Positions 1 through 3,000 of a stretch of 23,198 bases of DNA are shown piece after piece; within the stretch, counting starts at the first letter, position 1; the number at the start of each line of letters is the position of its first letter. Source of the stretch: a virus (taxonomy: Duplodnaviria > Heunggongvirae > Uroviricota > Caudoviricetes); IMG/VR virus record IMGVR_UViG_648276650_000002, positions 1 through 23,198 of that record; one strand, given 5' to 3'. A program made the position numbers.

Positions 1-3000
1 GGGCCTATCAATGGGCCTAAAAGGTTCGGATTTAATTAGTTCTCTTCGGACTTCGCGGGACAAATTCAGGGCACAAAAAAGCCCGCAGGGCTTGCGCCGT
101 GCGGGCTCTTAGGACTTCATCGGATGACTCTGGTAATCACCGATGGAGAATTTTGGTGGAGCTGGCGGGAGTTGAACCCGTGTCCGAATAATGCTTAACC
201 TATTGAATATTAATGTTTTGTCTTTTTTGAAAGGCCTCAAGTGCATTTTACGTGCATATCGTGGTCCCTCTAACGTCCTGATTCCGTCCAACATTTTGAA
301 ATACTCACGACGCTACAGAGCTGCTGAAATGGCGGTTTTCCCGTCGTATTCAGCCAGGTATTTACCGTAATTGCGGAACAGCATTTCCGGCCCTTTATGC
401 CCCATCTGCCCGGCAAGCCAGAAAAGGTTTACGCCCTGGCTAATGTGTCTGGTGGCGAATGTGTGGCGGGTCTGGTACGGGTTACGGTATCGAACGCCAG
501 CTTTTTTGAGGGTTGGCACCCATGCTTTTTTTCGTATTGCGTCGGCGTTCGCCCAGGGCTCTCCCGTTTTAGGGTCGCTGAAAATAAACTCGCTTTTCAT
601 GAAAGTGAATTGTTTCTGCGCCTGCAGCGCGGCCAGCGCCTCGCTGTTTAATTCTACTTTACGGGTACCGGCTTTTGTTTTGGTGCCTTTCAGAACGCCA
701 ACAACACTCGCCGCCTGAACGTGAGCTGTTTTAGCGATATTGTCGAGATCAGGCCAGCGCAACGCACACAGCTCAGAGCTGCGTAAACCTGTATTGAATG
801 CGAAACGGAACAGGTTTTCCCATTCCGGATAACTGCAGCTCTGGTAAATGGCGCTGATTTCCGCTGGTGTGAACGGATCAACTTCGTAATCGTCACTATT
901 CGGGCTGCTGTCGATCACGTGGTACCGACTCGCGCTGACAAGGGTTACCGGGTTGATAGTCAGCAGGCCGTCTGTCACCGCTTCATCTATGGCGCTGCGC
1001 AGAAACGAGAGGTTATTCCTGATTGTTTTCAGCTTTGTTTTTCTGCTGGCGATCCAGTTTTTGAGGACCGCAGGGGTCAGTTCCGATACATGCATTTTGT
1101 GCAGCGCAGATAGCGCAGACAGGCACTTTTCATAACCGCCAATAGTGGACGGCGAAAGGTTGCGGTTCTGGCAGATTTTCAGATACTCGTCCAGGTAGGA
1201 CTTAATATTTTTGGTTTTCTTCACTACCCCGAACAGCTCCAGTTTTTTGGAGGTGGGGAAGTATTTCGCATAATCGAATGTGCCGCCGGCGATCTGATTC
1301 TGTATCTCCCCCAGCAGGCGCTCGGCATACTTCACGCCGCGCGCGTTTGCTTCCATTCTGGAAAGGGGCTCCCGGCAGAGAACCCCCTTGTAGGTGAATG
1401 TGATCACCAGGGTGTCGCCAGTTTTATGCTGGCGAATGGTTACTCCTCTTGGGAGAGATAATGATCCTTGTTCTTTCTTGCCCACTTTGAAACCTCCGTT
1501 AAGTCTATCCAGCGTTCTTTAACGCCATCGACTTTTAATACATGGACACCCTCTTTCCATAACCCCCTTTGTATCCGTTTGTTAACGGCTTCAACCGTTT
1601 CTCCGGCGTCCCGGCAGTAGGTTGAAAGTGGTACGCAATCAAGACTCATGACCGACCTCCCGCCCGAATGCCTGGGCATTTTCCAGTTCATTTGCCGCAT
1701 AGATAAGTGCGTTGTGGTGCGCTCTAAAACCGCCATCAAGTTCGCTGGCCGCTCTCTTGCGCAAAAAATCGATTGCAGCCTGATAGTCTTCACTGGCTGG
1801 CAGATCTCCCACGAGCATCAGCATGTTTTCCGGGTCGACAGGGATGGTGGTGAGCCCCAGCTGCTTGGCCTTCGTTGCCAGACGGGTCCAACGCTTAATA
1901 ATTTCTGAAACTGGCTTATTCATGGAGCGCCTCGCTACCTCACCAAAAATTTATATTCAATCAGCGCGCCGATAACGGTGGCCGCCAGTAGCAGGGAAAC
2001 AATGATGCTGAAAGTGAAGGGCTTCATCATTTCACCCCTGCTGGTTTGATGGCCTGCAGTGCATCAACCTCTTTAACGAATCGGTCATGCATCGCGTCCC
2101 ATTTCTCACACCATTTCTCCATTTCTCGCTTGCGCGCCAGGATACGACGCAGACGGCGAACACAACGCTGGTGGGCGGCCAGATACTCAGCCTTTGTTTC
2201 CCCGTCTCGCCATACCTCCATATCATCGCGATCAATACGCACTCGCGGGTGACGCTGTGGAAAACCTGAACGCTCAAAAGCCTCGGTGGTCATGAAGAAA
2301 GCCAGATAGCGGATCGCCGTATCGCGGGTGAAGCATTTTTTGACGCGGCCGTGACGGCGTGCCACGAACAACGGACCTGCCGGGGTATCATGTTGCTGTA
2401 ATGCCAGGTCGATTGCGCTGGCGATGCGTTTATCAGTCATTTTCTGTCCTTCAATTTTGAATAGCGTTCGTGGCTCATTACTTCCCAGCTCTGGCCGCCG
2501 TCGCGGGAAAGCAGGCGCCAGCGGAGATTCACACTCAGGCTCAGATAGCCAGTCTTGTGCATGCGGCGGGGGTGGATCCGCCCGGCGCGGTGCTGGCGCA
2601 GCACACGCACAGCCCTTTCGTGAACCCATTCAGGGATTCGGATCGCAGTAAGTGTCATGAATGCTCCTGCGTGATGGCCGCTGTTTTCTTAGCATGTTCG
2701 ACCAGCTCTGCCACAAGCTCATCAACCAGCAGCTTTCCGCTTTCAGTCAGGTATTCGCCATGACCATTCACATCAACTGCATTCCGGTACAAATCGCGGA
2801 TAGCTTTATCGCCTGCCACCGGGCCATGCTCACTTCGCGCCATTTTTTCAAACCGGCACAGAAGCCCGTCGAATAAAATCTCGGTCAGCTCCATGGTCGT
2901 TATTCCGCCTTTCGGAAGAGTAATAACAATGCAGGTTGTGCCTGTTTTACGTTGGTGGCGTAATAACGCTGCCTTTAAAATTCGGCGGCGGTAGGTTTCA

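Follow-up and report, generated by a model that had tools for sequence, protein, structure and literature searches.

A 35-nucleotide ssrA fragment as the probable att junction between a lambda-like prophage and a CP4-57-type island

The left end of the Caudoviricetes record IMGVR_UViG_648276650_000002 (positions 1 to 23,198, analysed at full length and called here the window) carries a short piece of ssrA, the gene for transfer-messenger RNA (tmRNA), next to an integrase gene (int), and it is this junction that is described here. The Islander principle, which concerns elements residing in tRNA and tmRNA genes, reportedly goes back to Williams (2002, 2003), and the junction in the window is no different in kind from that of Islander-type elements. 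In such elements (tDNA elements) the attachment site of the incoming DNA (attP) holds a 3' fragment of the target gene, so that upon integration the gene is regenerated and a displaced fragment, in the same orientation, is found at the other end (PMC4383910). Tandem arrays, whose members each have an integrase and a fragment of their own, are also known, the tmRNA gene being the most enriched target (Hudson et al. 2015, PMC4383910).

The elements found in ssrA of Escherichia coli, including that of strain CFT073, have already been catalogued (Williams 2003, as cited in PMC10107115). The CFT073 prophage is listed in the citing paper as Ecoc48X, with the ssrA 3' end reported as unchanged (PMC10107115, Table 1). 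Like the window, it lies at ssrA with int directed toward a displaced core, which is identical to window 154-185 including the T at position 181 (T181), and its integrase (Int) has the same length of 390 amino acids (aa) and is 69% identical to that of the window. Unlike the window, it has a different integrase-proximal arm, two genes between core and int, and the native flank (with the ypjA side deleted or rearranged). CP4-57 of E. coli K-12, which encodes the P4-type integrase IntA, uses the same target gene as the phage of the window; its int runs after ssrA in the same direction, the crossover falls in the last ~15 nucleotides (nt) of ssrA, and its short core CGCCAGCTCCACCA is contained in window 154 to ~169, while window 1-153 corresponds to its integrase-proximal arm. 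The integrase of CP4-57 belongs to a different family (Arm-DNA-bind_3 / Phage_int_M) from that of the window. When CP4-57 excises in K-12, T357 is lost and tmRNA becomes inactive, and ribosome rescue passes from tmRNA to ArfA (PMC10107115).

With a probability of roughly 0.93, the left end of the window represents the att-junction end of a lambda-like prophage integrated in ssrA, beside a CP4-57-type island. The features of the core on which this reading is built are the following.

154-188, minus strand: displaced 3'-terminal 35 nt of ssrA (nt 329-363: T-arm, 3' acceptor strand and CCA), forming the core of the att junction (34/35 match, single copy).
154-180, minus strand: invariant part of the core, containing the strand-exchange region (comparison of attP, both junction types and the bacterial site, attB).
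Within 154-180, minus strand: T-stem 165-169/177-181 and T-loop 170-176, in window coordinates.
181-188, minus strand: phage-derived edge of the core, carrying T181 (attP of phage LMessi and integrase-side junctions).

On the minus strand, window 154-188 reads TTCGGACACGGGTTCAACTCCCGCCAGCTCCACCA and agrees at 34 of 35 positions with nt 329-363 of ssrA from E. coli K-12 (TTCGGACGCGGGTTCAACTCCCGCCAGCTCCACCA), confirming an earlier note on this DNA in which only the last ~35 nt of the gene, with one mismatch, had been recognised on the minus strand at 154-188. The sole mismatch is T181 (C in K-12), which corresponds to a change from G336 to A in the ssrA strand, at the position that opens the 5' strand of the T-stem. 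The fragment thus starts immediately 5' of the T-stem and extends to the CCA end, and its 5' edge holds one phage-specific base. It is present in single copy in the 23-kb window (pattern search admitting up to 3 mismatches) and was recovered in 0 of 100 shuffled sequences, for a chance expectation of 0. Neither ARAGORN nor Rfam found a tmRNA gene anywhere in the window, as the same note had anticipated for this side of the element, and similarity to intact ssrA breaks off at 188/189. Two small open reading frames (ORFs) spanning the junction (109-294 on the minus strand and 191-370 on the plus strand) gave no PHROG match and were treated as spurious.

The nature of the fragment becomes clear from comparison with a free phage. 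Escherichia phage LMessi (PP925823) shares 97% DNA identity with window 154-1788, a match that begins at the CCA end. In the attP of LMessi the order is integrase-distal arm (...TTGCAGTCCTATCAAAAG), core with T, and integrase-proximal arm. The integrase-distal arm of the phage family reads CTTTTGATAGGACTGCA..., with a GTGCAC/GTGCAT repeat, and in relatives the phage arm found behind the CCA of the intact ssrA is CTTTTGATAGG....

Four relatives could be read at both ends, namely UMNK88, the ENA contig k119_8129, DX6 and IMG/VR UViG_2778261297_000007, and all of them have an intact ssrA and a second copy of the core at the other end of the prophage. This is what the earlier note had expected in reading 154-188 as the att end lying away from the complete tmRNA gene, and the outcome that it named as a refutation, with no second core or intact ssrA at the other end, was seen in none of the four. 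UMNK88 has smpB, then an intact ssrA, an integrase-distal arm of the LMessi type, a prophage of ~36.5 kb, and finally int with the displaced core. The same two-ended arrangement, with both att junctions within one locus, is seen in k119_8129, which encodes an Int protein identical to that of the window, and DX6 shows the same relation between the intact ssrA end and the integrase-side core. The closest counterpart is UViG_2778261297_000007 (45.4 kb), which matches the window exactly over 61 nt (window 140-200) and with 2 differences across window 1-330. There, an intact 363-nt tmRNA gene (tag ANDENYALAA) lies 41.06 kb away and its CCA is followed by the phage integrase-distal arm, so that the ssrA end consists of the LMessi integrase-distal arm, the core with C, and the body of ssrA. 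In a scan of IMG/VR, the exact 61-nt junction was present in two contigs.

When attP, attB and both junction types are aligned, they describe a classical attP x attB exchange giving rise to two junctions. Moreover, three kinds of downstream flank adjoin copies of one phage that are 99.7-99.97% identical over 11 kb, and the flank breaks all fall within ~10 nt of the CCA end at 154, precisely at the CCA if the fragment is intact and at 161 in those copies that have lost 5 nt. Since one phage adjoins different flanks, all of them breaking near window 154, the boundary of the element is fixed.

Two of these relatives deserve a separate description. The contig k119_8129 (L012, ERZ27272443) is a degraded relative, in which ~9 kb hold smpB-ssrA, DinI and some tail genes, joined directly to early-left genes and the Int gene shared with the window. 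E. coli DX6 (NZ_CP126345.1, 1164600-1241031; L001/L017/L018) has two head-to-tail copies of a related 38-kb prophage at ssrA, and is thus a tandem double lysogen in which the prophage copies meet at an attP-like junction and a P4-type integrase lies beyond the outer core.

The single mismatch of the fragment carries information on the origin of its two sides. Intact ssrA always has C at the position of window 181, be it in K-12, in BR1220 or at the ssrA-side junctions of UMNK88, k119_8129, DX6 and UViG_2778261297_000007 (wild-type 3' end, in the reading with the C allele, ...GGACGCGGGTTCAACTCCCGCCAGCTCCACCA). T is found in the attP of LMessi and at every integrase-side junction of the integrase type of the window, and in no intact ssrA examined. 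Among the two-ended lysogens the integrase-side core has T in three of four, the exception being DX6, and the attP of the DX6-type phage, for which DNA identity across the integrase region is 88%, carries C; the CFT073 prophage, as said, has T as well. Positions 181, 182, 186 and 187 differ among related phages. The invariance of 154-180 has two exceptions, a change at 178 in the outer copy of DX6 and the 5-nt loss, seen in the relatives L009, L011, L012 and L013. The change at 178 was considered as a crossover marker and rejected, being present only in the outer of the two copies in a frameshift-rich assembly.

From this comparison T181 is the allele of the phage attP, and the displaced core is a hybrid, with 181-188 coming from attP, and with the part from the crossover to 154, together with everything beyond it, coming from the chromosome. 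The C-to-T difference had been proposed as a means to tell a phage copy from a host copy; it does separate phage-derived from host-derived sequence, but does not distinguish one copy from the other, the displaced core being a hybrid. Because the T181 side is phage-derived and the ssrA side is wild type, strand exchange is confined to 154-180. Integrases that target the T-arm, with T-loop sublocation classes, were reportedly treated by Williams (2002). The 7-nt T-loop (170-176), lying between the inverted halves of the T-stem, is the likely overlap region, and integrase sites in the 'T-stem region' have been described (PMC4383910). Since the exchange takes place 3' of ssrA position 336, the sequence of tmRNA is unchanged by integration or excision. 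In this the phage of the window differs from CP4-57, as its only polymorphism stays on the phage side and ssrA remains wild type.

T181 (A336 in ssrA numbering) is kept across integrases only 69% identical (window compared with L071, position 240), although it would break the first pair of the T-stem; it may have a role of its own, for instance in making the core sites asymmetric. As for the 5-nt loss, an acceptor-strand lesion reading CGCCAGC-----CA occurs in displaced cores beside exactly the same Int and before the native ypjA flank in L009, L011, L012 and L013 (~11307-11335). The same lesion is also listed for O157 OI#108 and RS218 (PMC10107115, Table 1), and it suggests excision of an older island after integration of the phage.

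On the other side of the core, the window offers the following features.

1-153, minus strand: integrase-proximal arm of a CP4-57-type (P4-like) island (98.9% identity with K-12, absent from empty-site strains).
75-110, minus strand: intrinsic terminator with an 11-bp outer and a 3-bp inner stem, followed by a U-run (terminator scan, fold, and inverted repeat 77-91/96-110).

Window 1-188 is 98.9% identical to the 3' end of K-12 ssrA plus the 153-nt spacer between ssrA and intA, and position 1 lies ~50 nt short of the expected start codon of intA. In strains with an empty site (BR1220 and others) the CCA of ssrA is followed directly by ATCATGATTGG... and ypjA, without the 153-nt sequence. Likewise, the displaced core of UMNK88 adjoins the native ATCATGATTGG... 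flank and lacks window 1-153. In K-12-type genomes the native ypjA flank is found at the far end of CP4-57, preceded by CGCCAGC-CCACCA, which is the end lacking T357 that has been reported when CP4-57 excises (PMC10107115, Table 1). A P4-type integrase is encoded beyond the same flank in L030 (97% identical to IntA of K-12), L016, L002 and L001. Given its identity with the K-12 spacer and its absence from empty sites, window 1-153 is part of a CP4-57-type island, the terminator included. The earlier note had left 1-153 as host flank or another element, and had suggested comparison with an empty locus; the direct contact between ssrA and the ypjA flank in BR1220 decides for another element and against native host flank. 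The locus is therefore a tandem array of ssrA, lambdoid prophage, displaced core and CP4-57-type island. Judging from its geometry, the prophage is the younger of the two elements, since a newcomer integrates into the functional gene. Klebsiella 'phage' matches to window 100-188 were also considered as a clue to the native flank of E. coli and were set aside, being prophage records that include flanking DNA.

The terminator is formed on the minus strand by a stem-loop from 110 to 77, with the U-run ending at 75. For the 94-nt trailer the folding energy is -38.6 kcal/mol (z = -5.1), and none of 200 shuffled sequences was equally stable; together with the terminator scan, this bears out the terminator-like hairpin that had been noticed toward position 1. 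In K-12-type loci the terminator closes the ssrA transcript, and in the window it sits downstream of int and of the displaced core. A second stable hairpin, CAUCGGUGAUUACCAGAGUCAUCCGAUG (window 118-145, minus strand), lies between the CCA end and the terminator and is kept in K-12 and Klebsiella records. It may be a 3'-processing element for pre-tmRNA, supplied by the arm of the island.

Other explanations of the same sequence have to be weighed against this reading. The window could contain a single prophage, with 1-153 as native flank, the hairpin as the terminator of the host ssrA, and no second element. Such a reading could draw on the fact that in 4247 of 5426 complete E. coli genomes (~78%) the 1-153 sequence lies directly behind ssrA or a copy of the core, and on the Klebsiella records, which carry window 100-153 behind the CCA and could pass for an ancestral flank. 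It is contradicted by the unoccupied sites, BR1220 among them, where ATCATGATTGG... and ypjA follow without the 153 nt; moreover, in K-12 the 153 nt lie inside the att boundaries of CP4-57, whose far junction by ypjA is CGCCAGC-CCACCA, the published lesion (PMC10107115), and all relatives with the 1-153 flank have a P4-type integrase 50 nt further. We thus regard a single prophage in native flank as very unlikely.

Less probable again is that the window derives from a free or circularly permuted phage genome, in which 1-313 would be attP and 1-153 its integrase-distal arm. The core does adjoin int exactly as in the attP of LMessi; however, 1-153 has neither the distal arm of the family (CTTTTGATAGGACTGCA...) nor its GTGCAC/GTGCAT repeat, and matches K-12 chromosomal sequence at the 98.9% identity given above. 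Hardly any weight is left for an ssrA pseudogene remnant produced by deletion or illegitimate rearrangement, which would explain why just 35 nt of the gene are left and why some copies (L009, L011, L012 and L013, with their 5-nt loss) show further small deletions. Against such a remnant, independent genomes and the attP of a free phage share the 188/189 boundary, and the phage-specific allele and the phage arm follow it directly, so that the attP comparison already refutes it.

Some observations weigh against the reading of the window as a prophage end beside a CP4-57-type island. The intact ssrA and the second copy of the core are known from relatives and not from the genome of the window itself, for which we infer an intact ssrA from those relatives. 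These share the att/int module and not the whole mosaic prophage, the coverage of the window in any complete E. coli genome being at most 49%. Finally, intA falls outside the window.

The junction most probably arose in the following way. The phage attP has its own version of ssrA nt 329-363, with A336, and Int recombines it with ssrA between nt 337 and nt 363 (window 154-180), the 7-nt T-loop being the likeliest place. At the far end of the prophage ssrA is then completed by the 3' end that the phage brings in, and the old 3' end of ssrA, with all that follows it, remains beside int, fused to the T181-bearing phage edge. Downstream of ssrA at the time of integration lay a resident CP4-57-type island and not native chromosome, which gives a tandem array with the younger element nearest to ssrA.

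The prophage side of the junction provides the recombination functions expected under such a model.

189-312, no strand: integrase-proximal arm of the phage attachment site, holding the candidate arm-type site 238-266.
313-1485, minus strand: tyrosine integrase of 390 aa, transcribed toward the core (Pfam, PHROG and PDB matches).
1440-1649, minus strand: excisionase (xis) of 69 aa, overlapping the start of int (PHROG 2917, 2e-40).

In Int, Pfam identified the domains Arm-DNA-bind_2 (PF12167; residues 12-80, 6.8e-20) and Phage_integrase (PF00589; 3.3e-17). The protein falls in PHROG 1, integrase (1e-65), and its PDB matches include Tn1549 Int (2e-9) and lambda Int (8e-6). By inspection of the alignment, LRSSEL, RHTF, GH and a C-terminal Y are visible. 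These matches predict a heterobivalent tyrosine recombinase, in which the arm-binding domain is N-terminal and the catalytic domain C-terminal. The excisionase assignment agrees with the orthologue in strain IGC_EcoliInv, which is annotated as 'excisionase'.

A candidate arm-type integrase site, CAAGTGCATTTTACGTGCATATCGTGGTC, was found at 238-266, and the motif GTGCATWTNNNGTGCAT at 241-257 is unique in the window. In the attP of LMessi a 29-nt direct repeat, CA(C/A)GTGCATTT(C/T)A(C/A)GTGCATAT..., occurs on both arms, 196 nt apart. Window 238-266 is the integrase-proximal copy of this repeat and is conserved where the neighbouring sequence diverges among relatives; it is a plausible candidate target of the Arm-DNA-bind_2 domain. 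The organisation recalls that of lambda Int/Xis, with a heterobivalent recombinase, int directed toward att, xis upstream and overlapping int, and repeats on both arms (here candidate arm sites), although the arm-binding domain of lambda Int belongs to a different Pfam family. Lambda integrates intergenically, between gal and bio, with a 15-bp core.

Rightward of xis the window encodes a CI/LexA-like repressor, a primase-helicase, the antiterminator Q, a tRNA cluster, a lambda-type terminase gpA, a portal protein and capsid protein E, and it stops within the late genes, leaving the other end of the prophage outside. With LMessi the window shares the core including T181, the integrase-proximal arm, int and xis, whereas the replication and late genes differ, those of the window being of the lambda type (gpA terminase, portal and capsid E); the shared part is thus limited to the int/att module. 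The LMessi-type relative in UMNK88 has HK97-type late genes, again unlike the window. The exact capsid protein of the window is common, occurring in 2766 blocks of the searched collection.

Further features were encountered inside the prophage and in its relatives. Between the Q antiterminator and the lysis genes, ARAGORN predicted four phage-borne tRNA genes (11351-11659), namely Met-CAT, Thr-TGT, Gly-TCC and one untyped gene with a 2-base 'anticodon'; Rfam confirms only three of the four as tRNA. Just downstream of this cluster, at 11878-12070, Rfam found a match to the small RNA family STnc100 (71.7 bits against a gathering threshold of 47). In some relatives, two extra genes without an assigned function lie between the displaced core and int (L002, 3200-4690, strain IGC_EcoliInv_1.1; L071, 250-1870, strain CFT073), and resemble cargo of the moron type carried at att.

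As a type, the junction is textbook tDNA integration and already known. What it adds is one prophage boundary set to the base, with the start of the phage side at 181-189 and the crossover within 154-180, and the recognition of a two-element array rather than a single prophage, which aids annotation and the delimitation of prophages and islands. The one-base difference is a clean natural marker, placing the exchange 3' of ssrA position 336, with tmRNA wild type both ways. It is tempting, if still doubtful, to see in the prophage a shield for the functional tmRNA gene against the older island, whose gene-side junction would now be the dead fragment at 154-188; in a weaker variant, it is only after integration that the displaced terminator (75-110) stops read-through transcripts from int. 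Insulation of ssrA from a CP4-57-type island is in itself only a mildly new angle. If true, excision of the island would change the fragment alone and spare tmRNA, uncoupling the excision-dependent switch of ribosome rescue.

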